Shown here piece by piece: positions 45,637 to 58,921 of a stretch of 64,000 bases of DNA (positions within the stretch are counted from its first letter, which is position 1; every line of letters begins with the position of its first letter). The notes below the pieces were generated by a model. It saw only the letters and a program-made list of their open reading frames with translations, did not search any database and was not told where the DNA came from. The position numbers and the translations under genes are program-made. Source of the DNA: a virus (Duplodnaviria > Caudoviricetes); IMG/VR virus record IMGVR_UViG_3300019378_000009, positions 32,001 through 96,000 of that record, one strand, 5' to 3'.

Positions 45637-47442
45637 TTAGTTTATCAAAACCGCATCTGCCCAAGAATACGACTTCTTTTGTCTCTTTTTATAATATTCT
45701 TGTTCTATTTGAGTTGATACCGCATAAATTCCGTATTCGGCCGCAGAGAAAAAGTCTTTTTGAATTTTCTTATTGCGTCTATCAATACGAAGTGTGTTAG
45801 ACACATTATCGCTAGTATCAATAATAATGAGGTTTTTAAGTTCTTCTTCCATTAGATCCATATATCTATAGGGTTGAAGTTTTGCACGCTTTGTTGCTTC
45901 AGACGCGCGCAAGAAATTTTTGTTTTGAGAAAATCTGGTCAATGCTTCGTGCATCTTAATCAGACCTCTAACAGAACCATTACTTACACGAGAAAAGAAA
46001 ATTCTGTGTATGTGTTCTCCCTCTTTACCACCTGATTTAATTTCATAACAAAGTGTGCGATATTTAGGATATCTAATTATATCTTTTTCCGCACTCTTGG
46101 GAGGATTGATAATGCCATAACCAGGCAATTCTAATCCAGTATCTCTATCTTTTGTGGGCTTATTTATCCAATCGCGAAGCGCTGCTCCAATACCGTTGGC
46201 GTCATAAACAAACATTCTAGCTTCATAAGTCGCTATAGTCTTTTTTAACTCATTTGCAACTACTTCATAGTCCGTACTATTTATAACAAACAGGTTGACC
46301 ATTTTATAGTTAAACATATGAGGACCAGGAGATACTCTAATTACTATTACCGCAGTATCCGCACTACCATCCTTCGCCATATCAGCAGTTACAATATAAA
46401 ATTCCTCTTTGTCCAATTCCATTGCATGCTCTTCGGCACGTCTAATTTGACGCATCGCCGCAATAACAGAAGGGCCAAATGCTGCTCCAGACTGCGCCCC
46501 GCTCCAACGAGATTTATATTCTCGGTCTAATGATCCTCGATCAAAACTGGGCGAAGAAATAATTTCGCGCATTGTTTGAGCTTCTAGGCGCCCGTGCATA
46601 AGAGGAATAACATAACTTCCGCCCAGTATCATATAATGGTCTGGGTCAAGCGCGCAATAACAAAGAGTTTCTATATTTTTATCATATGCAAATGTACCTT
46701 GAAATCCTGCGGTTGTGATATAAATCTTCTGGCCATGAGGCTCATTAGGATTAACTTCGCCGCGACAGTTAGTACGCTGAGCATTCATAAGGGGTATAAC
46801 TTCTTCATTAACCACTACGGGGTCTTGTTCAATAACTTCCTCGAAAATTCCATGGTGTCTACGCATACCTCTTGGGTGACCGCCAACAACGTCGAACACA
46901 CTACCACTAGTAAATCTAAATTCTGCATAGTCAGTACCCTCTGTATAGGCTGCCTTGATACCACGCTTCTGCATTTCATTTTTCAGAAGCGGAAATTTCA
47001 CCCATAAGTCTTGAATAACTTTTTCTTTTGCAATTTGCGCAGCCTGACTTTTCGTACCAGCAGTAACGAAACCGTTACTACGTGGCACAATCATACTGCT
47101 TGTATATTGCTGGTAAAAAGCCAAGAAAGACTTAGAAAACGCACGAGTGTAAGTTGCAAAGGTTTGACGATGTCGTGCCATACATCTCAACACAATTCGT
47201 TGCGCGAAAAACATAGAAAATCTGCTATTTTTTGGCGTCATTATATCTGCCAAAATATCTGGGTACACTAAAAAGGTGTTTAGTGCATTTGTATATAGTT
47301 CCAAATTGTTCTTCACTCGTTCTTTGCGCAATATTTTAACTTGCGCGCTATTAGAGGAATTCAAAAAGGAAATATAGGCATCAATTTCGGGTTCAAGATA
47401 AGTAGCCTCTTCCAGGGCAGTAGAGAAATTGATATTTTCCAT
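45637..47442 (-). CDS. terL: terminase large subunit
   Basis: RAFSKS (Walker A variant), RG.R, GIFEE, YITTAG, REY.S.W, nuclease motifs ADMA, DANGIG, KDFFSA. Confidence 0.88.
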   Translation of the reverse strand: MENINFSTALEEATYLEPEIDAYISFLNSSNSAQVKILRKERVKNNLELYTNALNTFLVYPDILADIMTPKNSRFSMFFAQRIVLRCMARHRQTFATYTRAFSKSFLAFYQQYTSSMIVPRSNGFVTAGTKSQAAQIAKEKVIQDLWVKFPLLKNEMQKRGIKAAYTEGTDYAEFRFTSGSVFDVVGGHPRGMRRHHGIFEEVIEQDPVVVNEEVIPLMNAQRTNCRGEVNPNEPHGQKIYITTAGFQGTFAYDKNIETLCYCALDPDHYMILGGSYVIPLMHGRLEAQTMREIISSPSFDRGSLDREYKSRWSGAQSGAAFGPSVIAAMRQIRRAEEHAMELDKEEFYIVTADMAKDGSADTAVIVIRVSPGPHMFNYKMVNLFVINSTDYEVVANELKKTIATYEARMFVYDANGIGAALRDWINKPTKDRDTGLELPGYGIINPPKSAEKDIIRYPKYRTLCYEIKSGGKEGEHIHRIFFSRVSNGSVRGLIKMHEALTRFSQNKNFLRASEATKRAKLQPYRYMDLMEEELKNLIIIDTSDNVSNTLRIDRRNKKIQKDFFSAAEYGIYAVSTQIEQEYYKKRQKKSYSWADAVLIN

Positions 47443-48551: not shown

Positions 48552-48923
48552 TTCTGGAGAATAGGTAATTTGGAAATAGAAATGCAGAATGGATTTAAGA
48601 ATGTTGGAATTGGATTTTGGTTACATGTTGAGATTGGATTTTTCGTTTCATACGATCTTTTTTCCACAACAGGCCCGGGTTGTTCATAATTTCGTAATAT
48701 TTGTCTAACACTCCCCCCCCGTCGTTATGCACAAAAAAAGAGCATACCCGGGCATACTTTTGTGCATATTGCCTAAAGTTTGTTAAAATTTTAACATTAT
48801 TCATATTTGATGCTTTTGTGCATATTGTACAAAAAATTTATTCTTTTTTCTACATAGAAAGTATTGACAAAGATAAAAATATATGGTAAAATAGGGTAGA
48901 AAATAAATCAAGGAGCTTTTCAA

Positions 48924-49328
48924 ATGGATACATTAATACTTGCAAAAATCGACCGTTTTTATGCAAATAACGGACAAGAGGCGGAGCGAGTTTTCCGCTA
49001 CACTTACACGGGCAAGCTTACAAAAGCCGATAACATTAAGCACACCGACGGCGCCGACTGCGACGACATTCAAATCAAGAGCGCGAGAGCAAGCGTCTGC
49101 AAGGGCACAGATATCAATGCATATCTCTCAAATGACAAAGCAAGCCGTTTTGCTTATGTTGTCAAGGATATGAGCATAGCCTACATAATGACAAAGGCAC
49201 TATATATTGAGTTTGTAAATGCTTTCGCTACAATCACAACTGAGAGCGCAAAAAACGGTGGTGCTACAAAGTTAAGGCTTAAAAGCGAAAGCAAGGCGAT
49301 GCTTCAATGGTTAGCGGAGAGGGTGTAA
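48924..49328 (+). CDS. putative PD-(D/E)XK-like nuclease
   Basis: NNGQEAE...GAD...IQIK motif; own promoter and SD; similar to 50433-50915 with the halves in reversed order. Confidence 0.55.
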   Translation: MDTLILAKIDRFYANNGQEAERVFRYTYTGKLTKADNIKHTDGADCDDIQIKSARASVCKGTDINAYLSNDKASRFAYVVKDMSIAYIMTKALYIEFVNAFATITTESAKNGGATKLRLKSESKAMLQWLAERV

Positions 49329-49481
49329 ACCCTCTCCCTTTTGCATTGTTGAAATTTAACGAGCGCGTCCGGGCGCGACCCGGTAACTTGCACAAAAAGT
49401 TGGGGTGCACGCAGTATAAATTTGTGCAAAATTTTTGAGGAAGAGGATTGACTTTTTCAGTGATTTGTGGTATAATATAAG

Positions 49482-49572
49482 TGTCAAGGGGCGAGGGAAA
49501 CCCAAGTTGCAACAGGGTAGTGAACGGAACTTGAAAAAAATTTTTGAAAAATTTTTCAAAAACCCCTTGACA
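49482..49572 (+). ncRNA. ORF-less unit bounded by inverted repeats (candidate sRNA) A
   Basis: Starts just after TATAAT; TGTCAAGGGG...CCCCTTGACA; no SD/ATG ORF. Confidence 0.45.
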
Positions 49573-49599
49573 AATCCACGAAAGTGTGGTATAATATAA

Positions 49600-49857
49600 G
49601 TGTAAGAGGGAAGGACAACAAACTGTACTTGCACCACCGTCACCAAGAGTGTGAGAGCGGAGTGCAAGAGGGGAGAAGTCACCTTGCAAGGCTTCCCTTT
49701 CACAACCGAGGTAATGAGGTCACTCTCCGCAGACTCGCAAAGCCATAAGAGGTGGGAACGCAAGTTGTTCTGTAAGACGAGCCCTCGGTATAGAAATCAG
49801 TAGACCAAAGACAACACTCAACCCTTGAAAGAGTGTGTGGACGGAGCGAGGGTATAT
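49600..49857 (+). ncRNA. structured non-coding RNA / tRNA leader
   Basis: Promoter at 49567, no credible ORF, GC-rich stems (CTTGCAC/GTGCAAG, ACCGAGG/CCTCGGT, ACACTC/GAGTGT). Confidence 0.5.
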
Positions 49858-49962
49858 GAGAGGGTAGCTCAAGGGTAGAGCGGCATCCTGCTAAGATGCG
49901 GCAGACGAGGTCAGTGCACGGACTAGTCCACTGTATGGGTTCGAATCCCATCCCTTTCACCA
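49858..49962 (+). tRNA. atypical tRNA, anticodon GCT (Ser-reading), 35-nt variable region, encoded CCA
   Basis: Acceptor GAGAGGG/CCCTTTC-A-CCA; D arm GCTC-AAGGGTA-GAGC; anticodon arm GCATC-CTGCTAA-GATGC; T arm ATGGG-TTCGAAT-CCCAT. Confidence 0.85.
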
Positions 49963-50090
49963 TAAAGACTTGGCGCGGCCGGTGTCGCGCCGGGCCGCCC
50001 GGGCTGCCGAAAATTTTTTCAGCTTTTTCGCAAAAACACTTGACAAACAAATAGTTTTGTGGTATAATATATACAGAAATAAAGAATGAG

Positions 50091-50282
50091 GTGTCTATTA
50101 TGAAACACGTGGCTTACAATCTTGTCACTCACGAAGTACTTTTTTCCAATCATTCCAATGCTTTAAAGCGCAGAGTTACCCAAATAGAACGTTGGAATAT
50201 AGCTAATGGTTATGGCAAGGGCAAATGGATATTCGCCCACGGCAAGCAGTGTGAATATAAAATTGCTGCCAAGCTCCACTAA
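50091..50282 (+). CDS. hypothetical cassette protein
   Basis: Own promoter at 50040 and GAGG SD (start at 50091 or 50100). Confidence 0.65.
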   Translation: MSIMKHVAYNLVTHEVLFSNHSNALKRRVTQIERWNIANGYGKGKWIFAHGKQCEYKIAAKLH

Positions 50283-50432
50283 AAAGGAGCTAGCGCCCGG
50301 GCGGCCGACTGGGATTGTTAAATTTTTCACAAACAAGCAAGTGGGAAAATTTTAAAAAATTTTTAAAAAAGAGCTTGACAAATCAAAGCTTTTGTGATAT
50401 AATATACTTGTAAGAAAGAGAGGATACAACCA

Positions 50433-50915
50433 ATGTATAGACTTGATAGAATGAGAAAACAATACGAACAATTCACTGCCGCAGAGGGTTACATCATCGG
50501 CTTCCGTGATGGCGACAAGGTGTATGCGGTAGACCTTGATAAAATACCTCGCAGATACACCAGAATACAAAAGGAAAGCAAGAGCAACGGTGGTGGCTAT
50601 GGCTTGTATGTAAAAATCACCGAACCTGCTATCCTGTCCGAGCTACTGCCGAAAGCCTACTATGTATGCGAGCTTGCCGACCTCATAGACAATGACGGAC
50701 ACCTCAACGGCAAGGGCGAACTCAAACACTTTAACAAAGGTGTTATGTTTGAAAAGAAAATATGGGAACTCAACGGTATGGAGTTCAGGGGCAAGGACAG
50801 TGTAAGATTTTACGAAAGTGGTGATATTACCATTGACGGAAAAGAAATACAAATTAAGTTTGAATGGGCAAGAATTTGTTATGACCGCACACTAAAAAGA
50901 CTGACCGCCAAATAA
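50433..50915 (+). CDS. putative PD-(D/E)XK-like nuclease (circularly permuted relative to 48924)
   Basis: NKGVMFE...SGDITIDGKEIQIK near the C-terminus; own promoter and SD. Confidence 0.6.
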   Translation: MYRLDRMRKQYEQFTAAEGYIIGFRDGDKVYAVDLDKIPRRYTRIQKESKSNGGGYGLYVKITEPAILSELLPKAYYVCELADLIDNDGHLNGKGELKHFNKGVMFEKKIWELNGMEFRGKDSVRFYESGDITIDGKEIQIKFEWARICYDRTLKRLTAK

Positions 50916-51020
50916 GGCGGCCGGTCCCGGCCCGGGCGGCCGTTCATAATTTATTTACATTTGAGGGGTTGACTTTTCCCTCTCGGTGTGATATAATATA
51001 TAGAAAGTGAGGACACGAAT

Positions 51021-51164
51021 ATGTTGCAAAAGAATATAGAAAAACAAGAGCGAAAAAATCGCAAAACTTGGCAGGGATATTTCACTCGCAAGACACCAAC
51101 CAAGAAAGAAAAAGAAGAAAAAAATCGTAAAAAATACAAAAAAGGTATTGACAAAGACGATTGA
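51021..51164 (+). CDS. small highly basic protein (47 aa)
   Basis: Promoter at 50969, GAGG SD, MLQKNIEKQERKNRKTWQGYFTRKTPTKKEKEEKNRKKYKKGIDKDD. Confidence 0.6.
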   Translation: MLQKNIEKQERKNRKTWQGYFTRKTPTKKEKEEKNRKKYKKGIDKDD

Positions 51165-51211
51165 ATGTGTTATAATATATATGTAAGAAAAAGAAAGACG
51201 AGGTAATCAAA

Positions 51212-51466
51212 ATGGAAACCACTTACAGTGTAGAAGCAAAGTGCGATAAGACAAGCGGAATGAATGTCGAGTTCAAGGGCATTGACAATTTGGAAAGTGC
51301 GATGGCGTGTGTAACCACTCTTGAGTTGGCATTTCCAAATATCACCGTCATTTGTGAACAGACGGGCGAAATAATGTATCACCGTTTGATGTCGTTTGAG
51401 ATTTTCAATCCCAGTATGGAAATGGGTAAGGCAATCTTCAAGGCAGAGTGTGATATGTACTTTTAA
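51212..51466 (+). CDS. hypothetical cassette protein
   Basis: Promoter at 51148, GAGGT SD, downstream hairpin. Confidence 0.7.
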   Translation: METTYSVEAKCDKTSGMNVEFKGIDNLESAMACVTTLELAFPNITVICEQTGEIMYHRLMSFEIFNPSMEMGKAIFKAECDMYF

Positions 51467-51644
51467 AGGACAAGGCGCGAATCGGTAGTTATATCGGTTC
51501 GCGCCAAACACATTCTTCTCGGTTAGCATATGCTAACTCGTGCCCGGGCGCTTTGTGCACTTTGTACATATTTGGGGCGAAAACTTTTTTATTTTTGTGT
51601 AATTTGACGATTGACTTTTCACTCATTATATGATATAATATTAG

Positions 51645-51745
51645 TGTCAAGAGGGGAAGGGGTATAAACGGTCGCCACTTGCAAGCCTTCCATTGATAAA
51701 GGTGCCGAAAAATTTTTTGAAAAATTTTTCAAAAACCTCTTGACA
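51645..51745 (+). ncRNA. ORF-less unit bounded by inverted repeats (candidate sRNA) B
   Basis: TGTCAAGAGG...CCTCTTGACA following the promoter at 51611. Confidence 0.45.
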
Positions 51746-51773
51746 AACCATAAGTTTTGTGGTATAATATAAA

Positions 51774-51886
51774 TGTCAAGGGGCGGTGTTAAGCAACCGA
51801 GAAGGACACACATAAGCGCAATCGTGTTTGATGAAGTCGGGACTGCCGAAAAAATTTTTGAAAAACTTTTCAAAAACCCCTTGACA
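51774..51886 (+). ncRNA. ORF-less unit bounded by inverted repeats (candidate sRNA) C
   Basis: TGTCAAGGGG...CCCCTTGACA following the promoter at 51740. Confidence 0.45.
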
Positions 51887-51968
51887 AATCACCAAAAGTG
51901 TGATATAATATAAATGTAAATAAGGAGAGCCGACACTCCATTAACAAACGGAGAAAAGGAAGAAAAAT

Positions 51969-52298
51969 ATGGCAACTATCGCATTTATCAACGAAAACGG
52001 AAATGTATCGGCAAAGGTTCGTGAGCGTCTTAAGTCGCAGACTATGACCGCTATCACAAAGGCTATGGACAAGTGCAACCTTGAAACCATAGTCAATGCA
52101 GACAAGGGCTTGTCTATCCCTCTCGGCACTGACAAGACCAACGGTAACCCCATTTACGCACACATCTCGGTTGTGATTTCACAACACAACCCTGCGGAAA
52201 AGACCGCAAAGACCAAGACCAAGACCAAGAAAAAGGTCGCAGACGAGGTCGCTCTCCCCGACATTTTCGGGGCAGTAGACGAGGGTGAGGGAGAGTAA
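51969..52298 (+). CDS. hypothetical protein, paralog family B
   Basis: Paralog of 60154-60504 (F.NE.GNVSAK.R...VNAD.GLSI...LPDIF); Lys-rich tail. Confidence 0.75.
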   Translation: MATIAFINENGNVSAKVRERLKSQTMTAITKAMDKCNLETIVNADKGLSIPLGTDKTNGNPIYAHISVVISQHNPAEKTAKTKTKTKKKVADEVALPDIFGAVDEGEGE

Positions 52299-52443
52299 TC
52301 TCCCTCTCACAAACACCTGTCCGCCATTGGCGGACGGCGCCCGGGCGGCCGGAATTGTGAACAAATTGTTAACTTTTATAAAACTATTGACAAATCAAAA
52401 CAAATGCGATATAATATTAGTGTAAGAAAGAGAGGAAAACAAT

Positions 52444-52683
52444 ATGACAATTAAAGAGTTGCCACTTATTTATAATGTTGATAAGGTTGTAGTGTATAAT
52501 AAAAGAGGTCTTGTATCTTCCTTTTGGAGAAACTCACAATTTAGTCTTGCCGAGCAAGTCGAATATAACCGCACACAGTTAATCGGTGCAGAAAATGTTC
52601 TTAATGAAAAAATTGAGTCAATGAGTATTGGTGTATCGGGTATTGCCGACAATGTGATAACTTTAGAAATTTATTTAAAATAA
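52444..52683 (+). CDS. hypothetical cassette protein
   Basis: Promoter at 52387, GAGG SD. Confidence 0.7.
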   Translation: MTIKELPLIYNVDKVVVYNKRGLVSSFWRNSQFSLAEQVEYNRTQLIGAENVLNEKIESMSIGVSGIADNVITLEIYLK

Positions 52684-52755
52684 ATTTTCCAAAACCCCTT
52701 GACAAATCGGTTTGTTTGTGATATAATATAGGTGTAAGAAAGAGAGGTAACAACT

Positions 52756-53004
52756 ATGATTTCAAGAAAAGAAGCCGAAAGAACTACTGATGCATACTAC
52801 GAGGTTGAAAGAGTACTTGGAGAGGTTGACGATATGATGCTCACCAAAGAAGAAATCTATGCAAGATTTCCGTGTGATTGCGATGGAGTGCCATACATCA
52901 CCATCTCCGCTTTTGAAAATGCTCTCCGCAACCTAATGCATATGCGACACATAGACAGTGTATGCGTAAGGGGTGTTCGCCACTACGGAGCCGTCAGAAG
53001 ATGA
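52756..53004 (+). CDS. small winged-helix-like protein
   Basis: LTKEEIY...ITISAFENALRNL......G...Y; promoter at 52699. Confidence 0.6.
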   Translation: MISRKEAERTTDAYYEVERVLGEVDDMMLTKEEIYARFPCDCDGVPYITISAFENALRNLMHMRHIDSVCVRGVRHYGAVRR

Positions 53005-53141
53005 CGGCTTGGCGGCCCGGGCGCTTTGTGCACTTTGTACACTTTTCCCCGAAAAATTAGTGCATTTTTGTGCAACTTGCCATATTGACAAATGCGGAAA
53101 AATGTGATATAATTATAGTACCAAAGGAAAGAGAGGAACAT

Positions 53142-53594
53142 ATGATGCTTGGAAACACCATTCTTGCACTCAACGACATCAAGGAACTTGAAGTCAAAAT
53201 CTCCGACACCAAGAACGGAGAATGTATCCACCAAACCCAACGAAACGGCATAGGTGCGAAACTCCGTGAAGCACTTGCCAACGATTTCTTGCAGATTTTT
53301 CCCTACTCGGAAAATGCAGAGGACATCGTGGCTTATGTAACGGACGACGGGCTTGTGCTTGAAATTCCCAACCAAAGCGTCAAAGACGGCATTTCCAATG
53401 TGAACGGCAGTGGCGCAATCACTGTGGAACTCGGCTTTACGGTTAAGAACTTGGAATACAATGCACAAGACGAAAGCGAAAGCCACAAGGTCAAGGTTGC
53501 CGAAAAAGAAGCCAAAGCAAAGGAACTTGCCGAAAAGAAGGCAAAGAAAATTGCGAAAGACAATGCGGCTCGCAAGAAGGCAAAGGGAGAGTAA
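53142..53594 (+). CDS. hypothetical protein, paralog family A
   Basis: Paralog of 56707 and 61200 (DG..LE.PN.SV.D.I.N..GSGAI..E..FT.K.LEYNA.D); SD-supported ATG at 53142. Confidence 0.8.
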   Translation: MMLGNTILALNDIKELEVKISDTKNGECIHQTQRNGIGAKLREALANDFLQIFPYSENAEDIVAYVTDDGLVLEIPNQSVKDGISNVNGSGAITVELGFTVKNLEYNAQDESESHKVKVAEKEAKAKELAEKKAKKIAKDNAARKKAKGE

Positions 53595-53734
53595 TCTCCC
53601 TCGCCAAGCCGACCAAATGTAAAGTTTGGTTGGCGCGGCGCCCGGGCCGTTCATAATTTATTTACAATTTAGGTATTGACAAGTCAGTTATTTTATGATA
53701 TAATATATACATCAAGAGAAAGAAGGATAATAAT

Positions 53735-53983
53735 ATGAAATTTCAGCAAATCAGTAGAAGCAAAAGACACGCCAAATTTTATGACGCTTGCACAGGGGAA
53801 ATCTTTTTCGCAAAAGGTTTCACTTATATGAAAACCGATGATAATGATATGGTTAATGCCGTTCAATTAGACGGTATTGAGAGGGGAGAATTAACATTCT
53901 TTGAAGAAGGTGAAGATATTGACATTCTCAAAAGCGAAGTCGTTATCAACTACGAAGCAAACGAGGTGTTGTCGTGGATTTAA
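53735..53983 (+). CDS. hypothetical cassette protein
   Basis: Promoter at 53676, AAGGA SD. Confidence 0.7.
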   Translation: MKFQQISRSKRHAKFYDACTGEIFFAKGFTYMKTDDNDMVNAVQLDGIERGELTFFEEGEDIDILKSEVVINYEANEVLSWI

Positions 53984-54105
53984 CGGAATGCCAACTTTTG
54001 TTGGCACGCCCGGGCGGACGTTCACAAATTGTTTACAATTTGGATATTGACAAATCGTTTTATTTGTGATATAATATATACACAAGGAAAAAGGAGATAA
54101 ACAAA

Positions 54106-54408
54106 ATGAAAGTAAATCTTATGGTAAATTGGGAAGAAAAGGAAATTCTCACTGTCCAGGAACTTGACGAACGCATTGATGCGAGAGTTGACAAGGTGAT
54201 GCTGGACGCCGATGCTTATGACGAGCATCTTGATGACTATATTGACTGTAACTATACCAAGAGAGAACTCTTTGATGCTTTGTCTGGTAGCGATGCAGAG
54301 AGAGAAAGGGTACTTTCCGACATTCGTTCAGGAGTTGGCGAGAGCATTTACGATTGGGTGAATATGGATATCAGTGGCAATTTCCACGATGTAACCATAG
54401 AGGTCTAA
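54106..54408 (+). CDS. acidic hypothetical cassette protein
   Basis: Promoter at 54047, AAGGAG SD; D/E-rich. Confidence 0.7.
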   Translation: MKVNLMVNWEEKEILTVQELDERIDARVDKVMLDADAYDEHLDDYIDCNYTKRELFDALSGSDAERERVLSDIRSGVGESIYDWVNMDISGNFHDVTIEV

Positions 54409-54603
54409 CAAACAAGGCGCGAACTCAAAAAGTTGGGTTCGCGCTTTCTACATAAAATAGATTGTTAAATATTTAACAAGGGCGTGCCCGGGCGGTTCAT
54501 CGTTTTGCACAAAATGAAGTGTCAAACAAATAAAAACTTTGTGCAATATTACTACTTGACTTTCTCATTATTTTATGGTATAATTAGTATGTAAGAAAGA
54601 GAG

Positions 54604-54888
54604 GTGATTGTTATATTACTTGCAACAATGTGGAACTCAATCAAAGATATATTTCAACCGATATACTGTAAGACTTGTAAGTCAAAGCATTACGCGACAA
54701 TCGGTTTCATATGGCACTTATGGAGAAAACACGGTATCAAAATCACAAGGCGAGATTTTAAGTTTTTGGCAAAGTATAACTTAATAACAAGGTTAGTTGT
54801 CGGTGTGTTGTGTGCCGTGTTCTTTGTTCCATTGCTCGTGTTAAAGTTTATCTTGCTTCCGTTGTATTACTTATACAAAATTTTATAA
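54604..54888 (+). CDS. C2H2-like Zn finger plus transmembrane segment
   Basis: CKTC...HLWRKH followed by a hydrophobic C-terminus. Confidence 0.6.
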   Translation: MIVILLATMWNSIKDIFQPIYCKTCKSKHYATIGFIWHLWRKHGIKITRRDFKFLAKYNLITRLVVGVLCAVFFVPLLVLKFILLPLYYLYKIL

Positions 54889-54901
54889 AGGAGAATAAAA
54901 A

Positions 54902-55114
54902 ATGATTACAGTAGAAGTTACCGCAGAAGTCTTATATACTTGCGAACTCACCGCAGAGGACGAAGAAAAGGTAAAGGCATTTGCCGAAGAAAATGATGTT
55001 GAGTTGGCGGTTGCCGTTGGGGAACTCTATTCAGTAGGAGAAATCAATTTATACAAAAATTCCGTTGAAAGCGATTTCAGTACCGAAAGAATTGATGACG
55101 CATACGAAGAGTGA
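54902..55114 (+). CDS. very acidic small protein
   Basis: AAGGAG SD; E/D-rich. Confidence 0.7.
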   Translation: MITVEVTAEVLYTCELTAEDEEKVKAFAEENDVELAVAVGELYSVGEINLYKNSVESDFSTERIDDAYEE

Positions 55115-55266
55115 GTTAGCATATGCTAACTCGCCCGGGCGCATTGTGCATACTGCACAACATATAAGGCGCGGATTGTAAAAAGTTTGTGTATATTGCC
55201 ATATTGACTTTTGGTTTATTATATGATATAATAAGAATGTAAAAAGGAAGAAACGAGGTAAACAAA

Positions 55267-55764
55267 ATGAATTGGTTTGAATTTTCTTTGAGCGGTTTCC
55301 TTGCCGTATTTATCGTGCTTAATATTGTCAATGTAATTATCCAAACTGTCAAGTCTATTGCTACTATCAAGTGCAGTGCTTGGGCGGCAGCAGGTGTTAA
55401 TGCACTTGCCTATGGTTTATATACCATCGTGGTGGTATATATGAACGCAGACGGACTTGGTCTGTTTTGGAAAGCAATAATTATAGGTGTTGCCAACTTG
55501 CTCGGTGTGTATGTTGTCAAAGTTATTGAGCAGAAGAAAAGAAAAGATAAACTTTGGAAAGTTGAAGCAACCGTTGACCGCACCTCTATTACTCGCTTGG
55601 ATAATAACCTTGACGAAGCACACATACCCCATAACTATGTAGTTGCAGGCAAATACGGAATTTTTAATTGCTACTGTGCAACCCAAAAGGAAAGCCTTGT
55701 AGTAAAAGAAATTTTGGATATGTATGGTGCAAAATATTTTGCAAGTGAGAGTAAACCCCTCTAA
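55267..55764 (+). CDS. membrane protein (UPF0316/DUF5698-like)
   Basis: Three hydrophobic helices followed by a soluble C-terminal domain. Confidence 0.6.
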   Translation: MNWFEFSLSGFLAVFIVLNIVNVIIQTVKSIATIKCSAWAAAGVNALAYGLYTIVVVYMNADGLGLFWKAIIIGVANLLGVYVVKVIEQKKRKDKLWKVEATVDRTSITRLDNNLDEAHIPHNYVVAGKYGIFNCYCATQKESLVVKEILDMYGAKYFASESKPL

Positions 55765-55908
55765 ACGAGGGGCTAGCGCCCGGGCGGTTCGTCATTTTGC
55801 ACAATAAACAAATAAGAAATTAAAAAATGTTTGTGCAATATGCCATATTGACTTTTCCATTTGTTTGTGATATAATATATATGTAAGTGAAAGAAAGGAA
55901 CCACTCCA

Positions 55909-56550
55909 ATGATAGTAATTATGTTTGACACCGAAACCACCAACGAAATTGATTGCCCTTTTTGTTACGATTTTGGCTTCTCCGTCCTCGACACCGACAA
56001 GCAAAAAATTCTTGAAAAGCACTCCTATGTTGTAGCAGATATTTTTTGCGACAAATCGCTTATGGCTTCCGCCTATTTTGCAGATAAGATACCGCAATAT
56101 TGGGAAGATATTAAAAGCGGAAAAAGAATGCTCCGCAAATGGTCAACCATTAAAGCAATAGTCAGAGAGGTAATGGCACAATATAACATTGATACCGTAA
56201 TTGCCCATAATGCTCGCTTTGACTACTGTTCAACCGCCACTACGCAAAGATACCTCACCTACTCTAAATACAGATACTTTTTCCCTTATGGCACGAAATT
56301 TGTTTGCACTCTCAAAATGTCAAGAGAGGTATTTGGTAAAGACGAAAATTATATTGCTTTTTGCGAAGAAAATAATTACCTCACCACCTATAACAAACCT
56401 CGCTTTACTGCCGAAATAATTTACCGCTTTCTCACCAACAACACCGATTTTGTTGAAAGCCATACGGGGCTTGAAGATGTGGAAATTGAAACGGAAATTT
56501 ATCTTGAATGTATAAAGAGAATGCCCTCGGTTGACGGACTGCTTTGGTAA
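55909..56550 (+). CDS. DEDDh-family 3'-5' exonuclease
   Basis: FDTETT, AHNARFD, HTGLED. Confidence 0.85.
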   Translation: MIVIMFDTETTNEIDCPFCYDFGFSVLDTDKQKILEKHSYVVADIFCDKSLMASAYFADKIPQYWEDIKSGKRMLRKWSTIKAIVREVMAQYNIDTVIAHNARFDYCSTATTQRYLTYSKYRYFFPYGTKFVCTLKMSREVFGKDENYIAFCEENNYLTTYNKPRFTAEIIYRFLTNNTDFVESHTGLEDVEIETEIYLECIKRMPSVDGLLW

Positions 56551-56706
56551 GTGGTCCGCCAATGGCGGACAGCGCCCGGGCGTTTGTGCACCTTGCACAA
56601 AAACACCGCCCAAAACTTACAAAAATTTGTGCAATATGCCATATTGACTTTTACCCAATTATGTGGTATAATAAGTATGTAAGAAAGAGAAAGAGAGGTA
56701 ACAACT

Positions 56707-57180
56707 ATGCCCAACTTTATTAACACCAACACCGCCCTCAATGCCCTTAAAGGTACTACCGTTAAGGTAAGTCAGACCAAGAATGGCGAGGCTATCCACC
56801 AGACTATGCGAAATAAAATCGGTGCGGTACTGCGTGAGGCTCTTTTTGCAGACCTTAAAGAGATTTTCCCCACCTCTACCAACCCCGAAGATATCGTAGC
56901 ATACCTCACCGCAGACGGAATTATTCTCGAGATTCCTAACGAGAGTGTAAAAGACACTATCACCAATGTAAACGGTAGCGGTGCAATAAGCCTTGAAATC
57001 GGCTTTACTGTTAAAAATCTTGAATACAACGCACAGGACAGTGCAGAGGCATACGAGGTAGACAGAGCCGAAAAAGAGGCGAAAGCCAAAGCCAAAGAAG
57101 AGGCAAAGGCGAAGAAAATCGCCAAAGACGAGGCAGACCGCAAAGCCAAAGCCAAAGCAAAGGCGGAAAAGGGGGCATAG
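56707..57180 (+). CDS. hypothetical protein, paralog family A
   Basis: Close paralog of 53142; K/A/E-rich tail. Confidence 0.8.
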   Translation: MPNFINTNTALNALKGTTVKVSQTKNGEAIHQTMRNKIGAVLREALFADLKEIFPTSTNPEDIVAYLTADGIILEIPNESVKDTITNVNGSGAISLEIGFTVKNLEYNAQDSAEAYEVDRAEKEAKAKAKEEAKAKKIAKDEADRKAKAKAKAEKGA

Positions 57181-57333
57181 TCCCTCTTTTCTTTTGCGGA
57201 AGATTGTTAAAAATTTAACAAGCCGGCCCGGGCCGCGTTCATAAAAAATTCATAAATAAATTTTGAAAAAACTATTGACAAATTGACTTGTTTATGATAT
57301 AATATATACACAAAGGAAAAGGGAGAAAAGAAA

Positions 57334-57651
57334 ATGATTGAAAAAGAATTTGACTTAACCACTCTCACAGATGAAGAACTTGCCGATTTTCATACGGCAT
57401 GGGTAAACGAAGCAAAACGAAGAGATAAACAACGCAGACGAAATGCCGCATTGCTCTTATACGAGGCGGTAGGTCAATTCATTGACACTATGGCGCACTA
57501 TGACTTTGTAAAGTTGGTATCAATGGAGTTTGTCAATGAAGAGGGCGAGGATTGTGAGTTTGATATCAATGTTTTCGGTGAAGAGGTACTTACCAACATT
57601 CGTGAAACTTTGCGGTTAGAGATAGGTCAGTATAGCGGAGAGGACGAGTAA
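57334..57651 (+). CDS. acidic hypothetical cassette protein
   Basis: Promoter at 57275, GGGAG SD. Confidence 0.7.
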   Translation: MIEKEFDLTTLTDEELADFHTAWVNEAKRRDKQRRRNAALLLYEAVGQFIDTMAHYDFVKLVSMEFVNEEGEDCEFDINVFGEEVLTNIRETLRLEIGQYSGEDE

Positions 57652-57818
57652 TCGTCCTTTTCGGCATTTAATTTGTGGCAAAAGTTCTGCCCGGGCATTC
57701 GTCATTTTGCACAAAAATCAGTTCGCGCGGTGTGAAAAGTTTGTGCATTTTGACTATTGACTTTTTACTGATTATGTGGTATAATATGTATGTAAGTAAG
57801 AGAGAGGAGAACATCAAA

Positions 57819-57974
57819 ATGACTTGCCATTATACCGTCAAAGACCTTATTGAATATCTTGAAACCTTACCCAAAGATACCGAACTTAAAATTGAGAGAG
57901 CAAGCGGCAATCTCACGGACGGCTTCGACCTTGAATACGAGGACGGCAACCTTATCCTCTGCAATGCTTATTAA
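57819..57974 (+). CDS. small hypothetical protein
   Basis: GAGGAG SD, ATG at 57819; TVKDLIEYLETLPKD motif common in small phage proteins. Confidence 0.65.
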   Translation: MTCHYTVKDLIEYLETLPKDTELKIERASGNLTDGFDLEYEDGNLILCNAY

Positions 57975-57990
57975 AGAAGGGAGAACGAAA

Positions 57991-58194
57991 ATGATGTATG
58001 TATATCTTGTTTATGAAGAGTGCCACGGTTTGGTAATGGTCTGTGGCTCTGAAATGGGAGCAATCAACAAGGTTAATAGCCTCGCCCCTAACTATGGCAT
58101 TGACCCCGAAACAACACCGCTTGACTATAACTCCCATCACCATTATGGTTGGGAAGGTGCGGTATATTTTGTGAAAGAGGTGGTATTTGACTAA
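57991..58194 (+). CDS. small hypothetical protein
   Basis: GGGAG SD, ATG at 57991 (MMYVYLVYEE...). Confidence 0.6.
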   Translation: MMYVYLVYEECHGLVMVCGSEMGAINKVNSLAPNYGIDPETTPLDYNSHHHYGWEGAVYFVKEVVFD

Positions 58195-58433
58195 TGATAG
58201 TAACAAAATATGAACATCTAATAGACGGCTCTGAATATGACGAAGAAGATGTCAGAGATGTCGCGGCGGAACATATCACGTGGGATAACTTGAACGAGGC
58301 GTTAGACGATTTTGATTTTCATTGGTTGTGGCAACATTTAACCCAAGAGGGACAAATGGAACTATATGACAAAGCAATTGAAACCTACCAAGAAGAATAT
58401 TTTTCCGCCATTGAAGTAGAAGAGGACGAGTAA
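58194..58433 (+). CDS. very acidic small protein
   Basis: TAATG coupling to the previous gene; D/E-rich. Confidence 0.65.
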   Translation: MIVTKYEHLIDGSEYDEEDVRDVAAEHITWDNLNEALDDFDFHWLWQHLTQEGQMELYDKAIETYQEEYFSAIEVEEDE

Positions 58434-58921
58434 ATCGTCCTTTTTCTTTTATCAAAATACAAAAGATAATCCATGGCAGAAATCGTGCCCGGGCTAACAT
58501 GCGCCCGGGCCGCAAATTTGAACAAATCAAGTCTATTTTATTAACAAATTGTAAACTTTTCAATCAGAAGCAACACCTCCCTTCCACAGCTGTACACCGG
58601 ATATCCCATTACCGTTACATGCCTCCCGAGTAATAAACCACCGGTAATAAGCAGCTATAAGCAGCAGCAGCACCACCTGTCCTTTGCCCATAAGCAGCAG
58701 CACAAATTTGACATAATTATTCAAATCCACGAAAAAGCAGCTACAAGAAGCTGCAAAAATTTGAATTTTTATACGATTTATGATATAATATTTATAGAAA
58801 AAGAGGAAAAACAAGAAAAAATTACAAGCATTTCTGGAATATTTACGCATCGCCGCAGTAGGTGATAAAATAATGAATATGTAGATCTGGATATAATTAT
58901 TACGAAAGGGGAAGCAAGAGA

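Follow-up and report, generated by a model that had tools for sequence, protein, structure and literature searches.

Circularly permuted paralogues of one uncatalogued protein family, with a predicted PD-(D/E)XK-like fold, in the early region of a 109-kb phage genome

Can one protein family be encoded twice at the start of a phage's early region, in two different topologies? The question is raised by two small open reading frames (ORFs), here ORF A and ORF B, in a 64,000-nucleotide (nt) window covering bases 32001-96000 of the IMG/VR record IMGVR_UViG_3300019378_000009, a complete 109,428-bp virus record with direct terminal repeats. A sequence-only reading of this DNA had described the two products as nuclease-like proteins carrying the same two motif blocks in opposite order, and the coordinates and blocks that it quoted match both ORFs exactly. 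We find that A and B are homologous and that B is a circular permutant of A, as that reading had claimed, and we consider what such a pair might do beside the array of GCCCGGGC octamers that runs through the same region. The two genes and their parts, in window coordinates, are these:

48864-48892, plus strand: promoter of ORF A, TTGACA, 17 nt, TAAAAT, with an extended -10 TG (consensus scan, 11 of 12 matches)
48924-49328, plus strand: ORF A, 134 amino acids (aa), canonical-order family member with a predicted PD-(D/E)XK-like fold (ORF list, relatives, model, fold matches)
48966-49103, plus strand: putative catalytic block of A, residues 15-60, a helix with N15, G17 and E21, then D36, D45 and Q50-x-K52 on a tight beta-hairpin (conservation and model)
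49146-49325, plus strand: second-sheet block of A, residues 75-134, with four strands, the ES.KNGG loop and a C-terminal helix (model and conservation)
49316-49337, plus strand: terminator-like hairpin and T-run at the end of ORF A, a 9-pair stem with 6 GC pairs, then CTTTTGCATT
50375-50403, plus strand: promoter of ORF B, TTGACA, 17 nt, TATAAT, with TG (12 of 12 consensus matches)
50433-50915, plus strand: ORF B, 160 aa, circularly permuted member of A's family (ORF list, relatives, model, permuted alignment)
50433-50657, plus strand: second-sheet block of B, residues 1-75, equivalent to A residues ~64-134 (aligns to A 70-134)
50733-50882, plus strand: putative catalytic block of B, residues 101-150, a helix with N101, G103 and E107, then D122, D131 and Q140-x-K142 (aligns to A 14-60)

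ORF A is preceded by a ribosome-binding site, AAGGAG, 8 nt ahead of its ATG, and both proteins are basic (isoelectric point ~9).

The swapped order is already visible in pairwise comparison, where BLASTP of A against B picks up two blocks and no more, QIK (E 0.036) and ES..NGG (E 4.3), and these stand in opposite order. With the halves split after the data were seen, the summed Smith-Waterman score of the swapped halves was 71, against 44.7 +/- 5.9 for shuffles, none of which (0/500) reached 71. A linear comparison of profiles A1 and A2 likewise gave two separate matches in swapped order, and when B was cut at residue 84 and rejoined these were replaced by one 107-column alignment (91%, E 1e-6). 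Comparison by hhalign of A3, a deep family-A profile of 104 sequences, with a doubled family-B profile aligned 127 columns (96.8%, E 2.7e-10, score 68.2), pairing A 5-134 with B 86-160 and then B 1-72; the linear comparison of A3 with B covered 55 columns with a score of 47.6. As controls, 40 column-shuffled doubled profiles scored 12.1 +/- 2.0 (maximum 16.8) and a reversed one scored 11. Hidden Markov models (HMMs) of each family were also run on the other across the loci that we fetched, A on B-type and B on A-type proteins, and wherever two stretches were reported their order was swapped. Chance or convergence of short motifs, without homology or permutation, could account for pairwise BLASTP values that are not significant (E 0.036 and above) but is in effect already refuted by the 127-column profile-profile match with its clean controls, by the reciprocal HMM matches on many independent members and by secondary-structure elements that follow one another in matching rotated order.

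That rotated order comes from AlphaFold2 models, which were obtained for A from 104 sequences (predicted local distance difference test, pLDDT, 97.5; predicted template-modelling score, pTM, 0.90) and for B from 25 sequences (pLDDT 92.9, pTM 0.85). Their predicted elements (E, strand; H, helix) are:

A: E2-5, H16-29, E46/49-52, E57-60, H64-69, E75-79, E85-90, H91-101, E102-106, E115-119, H124-133
B: H3-14, E19-26, E29-35, E43-47, E56-61, H65-74, E76-80, variable insertion, H102-113, E132-134, E137-143, E145-150, H151-159

Reading the list of B from residue 76 onwards and then through residues 1-75 reproduces the order of A in a comparison of the two element lists. The termini of B correspond to the short helix 64-69 of A and its loop, and the termini of A are directly joined in B at residues 74-76. 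The variable insertion of B (residues 81-100) lies between the strand that resembles the N-terminus of A and the catalytic module.

In fold searches with A, nearly all top rows were PD-(D/E)XK nucleases, restriction endonucleases included, and the best Foldseek row was Eco15I-NTD with a probability of 0.57. An ESM Atlas feature led to PDDEXK_16 clusters for A and to PDDEXK_14 clusters for B. Searches with B (Foldseek against the PDB and BFVD, and a VIA wide search) returned no usable match, as is expected of a permutant in searches that depend on sequence order. A PD-(D/E)XK, restriction-endonuclease-like fold is supported for A by its predicted model, and for B through homology to A. The PD-(D/E)XK-type active site that had been suspected from the motif pattern alone is likewise upheld, by the fold searches and the precedent of the BisI family for A and by homology for B.

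Conservation falls on the same residues. Across 104 family-A sequences with a mean column identity of 30%, D45 and K52 are 100% conserved, followed by G17 (99%), N15 (89%), D36 (D 88%, N 7%), E21 (E 87%, Q 13%) and Q50 (Q 59%, S 39%); in the second-sheet loop, S108 is conserved in 92%, and N111, G112 and G113 are also conserved. In B, 25 close relatives show no change at the catalytic-block residues N101, G103, E107, D122, D131, Q140 and K142, Y31 is kept in 24 of 25, and Y20, E48, G53 and G54 are invariant in A2; N101, G103, E107, G130, D131, Q140, K142 and A146 are unchanged in 10 B-types with identities down to 20%. In each model a core helix bears the Glu, the invariant Asp stands where a strand begins and the strand after it holds Q-x-K, which in A means E21 on H16-29, D45 just ahead of a strand and Q50-x-K52 on E49-52. 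The superfamily signature, namely a helix acid, an Asp at the start of beta2 and (D/E/Q)-x-K on beta3, is therefore found in A as modelled. In HhaI, too, the Asp lies where beta2 begins and the Lys where beta3 ends (PMC7026639), as in both models. Replacement of the second acid by Gln defines the 'PD-QXK' or Mrr-like subgroup, to which two of A's closest structural matches, NhoI and Eco15I of the BisI family, belong; in that family QXK lies on beta3, and each tested active-site mutation, including that of the alpha1 Glu, abolishes activity (PMC11347163).

The two families are large and entirely unnamed. A word search found 95 close relatives of A and an exhaustive profile search 256 cluster representatives at 50% identity; for B, a single-sequence search found 294 relatives and a profile search 425, with more than 400 clusters at 90%. 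All are unnamed metagenome proteins. Neither A nor B had a match in Pfam, PHROGs, NCBIfam or PADLOC (with E up to 1 for the BisI-level test), a profile search of PDB sequences with E up to 10 returned nothing for the family, tblastn of both against GenBank phages gave no match, and a scan of bacterial genome contigs with A found no relative.

One to three members occur per phage, in separate cassettes. Two A-types are found together in at least 15 loci and three in one (L013, 7169-10402), the multi-copy A loci including L003, L006, L008, L011, L012, L015, L018, L024, L026, L028 and L033. Distances between the family-A copies are 0.5-3.4 kb, and every copy has a cassette to itself; a B-type takes the second position in other phages, and A and B occur together in the window and in L001, L004, L020, L021, L022, L045 and L052. 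Tandem duplicates, from which a permutant could arise by duplication and trimming, are therefore common in these phages. A fused tandem A-A intermediate, which a duplication-deletion route would predict, was sought among the longer members (176-296 aa), but none of their extensions matched the profile of either family. When 10 B-types were rotated to the order of A and placed in a tree with 60 A-types, the B-types were monophyletic with two subclades, one old clade which suggests that a single permutation event probably gave rise to them. Since A aligns in chain order with solved nucleases, A keeps the ancestral topology and B is derived. That the A-type paralogues fall into several clades points to recurrent duplication and exchange.

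What, then, might these proteins do? They belong to an early region in which a consensus scan found 21 near-perfect TTGACA-17-TATAAT promoters on the plus strand between 48.86 and 58.8 kb, most with an extended -10 TG and most with a small ORF downstream; the region opens with ORF A, and ORF B is its third coding cassette. Since A and B each have a consensus host-type promoter of their own, they would be made immediately after infection. As the PD-QXK signature is catalytic in the BisI family, we infer that both are active metal-dependent nucleases, specifically Mg2+-dependent endonucleases. The reading that we favour, and regard as moderately probable, is that A and B are distant paralogues within one uncatalogued family and immediate-early PD-QXK-type nucleases, one canonical and one permuted. 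In the model of A, a short N-terminal strand leads into the catalytic module (the E21 helix, then D36, D45 and the Q50-x-K52 hairpin), the four-stranded second sheet and the C-terminal helix. In B, the second sheet and its helix (1-75) come first, followed by the strand that resembles the N-terminus of A, the insertion (81-100) and the catalytic module. Both would act on DNA, their presumed substrate, in host takeover or in competition with other DNA, and the paralogues within a phage would differ in specificity. Two observations weigh against this reading: the middle active-site residue is Q or S and never acidic, and the replacement of E21 by Q and of D36 by N in family A suggests that some members may be inactive.

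A more specific proposal concerns the GCCCGGGC octamer. All 16 copies in the 109-kb genome lie at window positions 49997-58510, against a chance expectation of 0.1, and the first three surround ORF B:

49997-50004, no strand assigned: first GCCCGGGC of the 16-site array, downstream of ORF A
50295-50302, no strand assigned: second GCCCGGGC, upstream of the ORF B promoter
50930-50937, no strand assigned: third GCCCGGGC, 15 nt past the ORF B stop codon

The sequence-only reading had placed the two genes at the head of this array. The octamer is a conserved motif of an intergenic module. It was considered as a plain terminator stem and rejected, lying outside the stem, a few bases 3' of variable hairpins and with no U-tract after it, so that another explanation is needed. 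It also lies ~39 or ~70 nt upstream of many -35 boxes.

On the strength of this array, A and B had been put forward as candidates for recognising or cutting GCCC^GGGC. Stated in full, the proposal is that A and/or B are SrfI-like endonucleases acting at the octamers that flank the early cassettes, and that the resulting breaks or nicks are repaired or used for recombination. Much of the distribution of the octamer is in its favour. The exact GCCCGGGC is kept as an intergenic motif in L001-L008, L011-L052 and G003-G008 while the family-A proteins of these phages are only ~32-58% identical. Of the 50 loci fetched via A or B, those of the A type all contain the octamer wherever about 3 kb or more of sequence extends beyond the gene, even at 32-38% A identity, and the loci without it are either short contigs or carry A at the edge of the contig. 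An octamer-pair scan of IMG/VR returned mostly high-GC phages with chance octamers, its informative part being five low-GC loci only. Co-occurrence in other phages was a check that the sequence-only reading had offered, and an A- or B-type gene is present in all seven array-bearing genomes that are at least 70% complete (G000 and G003 to G008), in most cases close to where the array starts. One of them, G008, is a complete 120-kb genome with 19 octamers, two B-types and no A-type. In this genome (L096, 73282-84142) one B-type gene ends 33 nt ahead of the first octamer. The rejection of a terminator stem, which leaves the octamer unexplained, and fold neighbours that are restriction enzymes for short GC-rich palindromes also speak for cutting.

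Against cutting stands, above all, a natural control for the role of the octamer. G001, a 194-kb genome that is 99% complete, encodes a B relative 58-62% identical to the window's B and has an equally dense run of ~30 consensus promoters with small genes (L009, 4000-18000), but its whole genome contains neither a GCCCGGGC nor an A-type gene, and the window's B groups in the tree in the same subclade as these octamer-less relatives. The complete 109,428-bp genome has no methyltransferase of PF00145, PF01555 or PF02086, in a search that left aside other methyltransferase families and non-methyl modifications. A phage without a methyltransferase of those three families would leave its own 16 sites unprotected, so that a double-strand cutter would cut its own early region. 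Moreover, A and B have no similarity to catalogued restriction-enzyme families, and the co-occurrence counts ignore shared ancestry; the association of family and array is real, but it may reflect common descent, perhaps within one phage lineage. What the octamers offer is a correlation, and recognition or cutting of GCCC^GGGC by these proteins was not sustained. We consider it unlikely, and less likely for the window's B than for A. The rejoining of ends by the phage ligase or Sak4, which the sequence-only reading had itself called speculative, finds support in none of the observations and stays speculation.

An extension of the cutting proposal would give the octamers a role in exchange. A-type proteins and those of subclade B-II would nick or cut GCCCGGGC at cassette boundaries, creating recombinogenic ends that promote the exchange, duplication and reassortment of early cassettes between co-infecting phages, an integron-like shuffling of host-takeover genes from which subclade B-I, with the window's B, would have escaped. 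We regard this scenario as speculative and doubt that it is correct.

The paralogues themselves could instead be the mobile elements. As selfish homing-type endonuclease cassettes, A and B would spread by cutting rival phages in co-infection and bring no benefit to infection. A copy number of 1 to 3, with the paralogues in separate self-contained cassettes, would suit such a lifestyle, as would A-type paralogues in several clades with the repeated duplication and exchange that this suggests. Homing genes are patchy, however, and the family is present in all array-bearing genomes examined, in a similar position; A and B also lie outside introns and inteins, interrupt no conserved gene and are strongly conserved despite wide divergence. 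We judge a homing origin improbable.

We attach a similarly low probability to the view that A and B are nuclease-fold binders of nucleic acid or of a host protein that do not cut, such as an octamer-bound early regulator or an anti-defence decoy. The points raised above against nuclease activity, a middle active-site position that is never acidic and variation of E21 and D36 in a minority of members, would be accommodated by a binder, and the octamer's fixed distance from many -35 boxes is operator-like. Inactive PD-(D/E)XK domains exist, for example in RecC (PMC3424549). However, D45 and K52 are completely invariant, the E, D, Q and K positions are invariant across both topologies at 20-30% identity, and the BisI family is catalytic with the same PD-QXK set, all of which argue for the nuclease reading that we favour.

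The two genes had also been called neighbouring. Both indeed lie in the early region, but a gap of 1.1 kb separates them and holds two promoter units without an ORF and two further features:

49858-49959, plus strand: tRNA-like gene, 102 nt (Rfam RF00005, 56.1 bits, E 2.5e-11)
50100-50282, plus strand: 60-aa ORF in its own cassette between A and B, without a family match (ORF list)

The tRNA-like gene lies in the early region directly ahead of the first GCCCGGGC. It has an anticodon loop CUGCUAA, giving the anticodon GCU (Ser), and an unusually long variable arm of ~33 nt; ARAGORN did not call a gene at 49858-49959. The two promoters without an ORF behind them, at 49448-49476 and 49567-49595 on the plus strand (stretch 49448-49860), match the consensus. 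Their products are probably short non-coding RNAs that run into the tRNA-like gene, and no Rfam family matched these units at window positions 49448-49860. Further into the region, a 213-aa protein is the product of the cassette at 55909-56550 on the plus strand; it has a match to phrog_20187 (E 1e-32) and a weaker one to phrog_192, 'DNA polymerase exonuclease subunit' (E 2.4e-8). None of the nine other early-cassette proteins tested had an informative match, and a DNA search of the region against GenBank phages gave two trivial short matches only.

In its large terminase (45637-47442, minus strand), this phage shares 30-37% identity with phages of 120-141 kb that infect Geobacillus, Alicyclobacillus, Enterococcus and Brevibacillus, and a contig binned as Ruminococcus sp. 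is the source of one ORF B relative. The host group of these 100-200 kb gut and rumen phages is probably Firmicutes.

A fold and a probable chemistry can now be assigned, from sequence and models, to two large families that are invisible to Pfam, PHROGs, NCBIfam and PADLOC, and in a widespread group of gut and rumen phages of 100-200 kb these families serve as markers of the first early genes. If the link to GCCCGGGC were causal, they would supply an enzyme for the modular shuffling of early cassettes; we know of no enzyme for the analogous PeSL cassettes of T4-type phages. What is new is a topological variant and two families inside a known superfamily, not a new kind of system.

Among known systems, SrfI is the restriction enzyme whose recognition sequence, GCCC^GGGC, is identical to the octamer GCCCGGGC, and nothing in this analysis ties A or B to it. 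The PeSL cassettes are small early genes bracketed by a conserved stem-loop and an early-promoter motif, thought to mediate modular shuffling (PMC2839356, PMC4122927). They are an analogue of the genomic context only and differ from the region described here, where phages whose proteins have diverged strongly still share one exact octamer. To our knowledge, PeSLs have no invariant GC-rich palindrome, and no dedicated nuclease has been linked to them.

The monomeric type IIP enzymes HhaI, HinP1I and MspI, at ~240-260 aa, are about twice the size of A and B. They adjoin their cognate methyltransferases, whereas this phage has none of the PF00145, PF01555 or PF02086 families, and the HhaI motif, SD-X11-EAK, is unlike that of A and B. 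The BisI family, with NhoI and the N-terminal domain of Eco15I (PDB 8q5n, 8rpx, 8q5o), is like A in fold and PD-QXK signature, at 15-17% identity in structural alignment and with no sequence similarity detected in the Pfam, NCBIfam, PADLOC and PDB profile searches. BisI enzymes belong to bacterial defence and cleave methylated GCNGC, whereas A and B are phage early genes, and no permuted topology like that of B has been reported for BisI. The PD-(D/E)XK superfamily has precedents for circular permutation, for example Hef (PDB 1j22), with its first core helix at the C-terminus (Steczkiewicz et al. 2012, PMC3424549). In Hef only that first core helix has moved, whereas B differs from A by a cut that separates the catalytic module from the second sheet and leaves the whole helix-hairpin module at the C-terminus. 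Unlike Hef, A and B present both topologies as paralogues in one genome with their sequence similarity still detectable, which makes the pair a tidy natural example of circular permutation.

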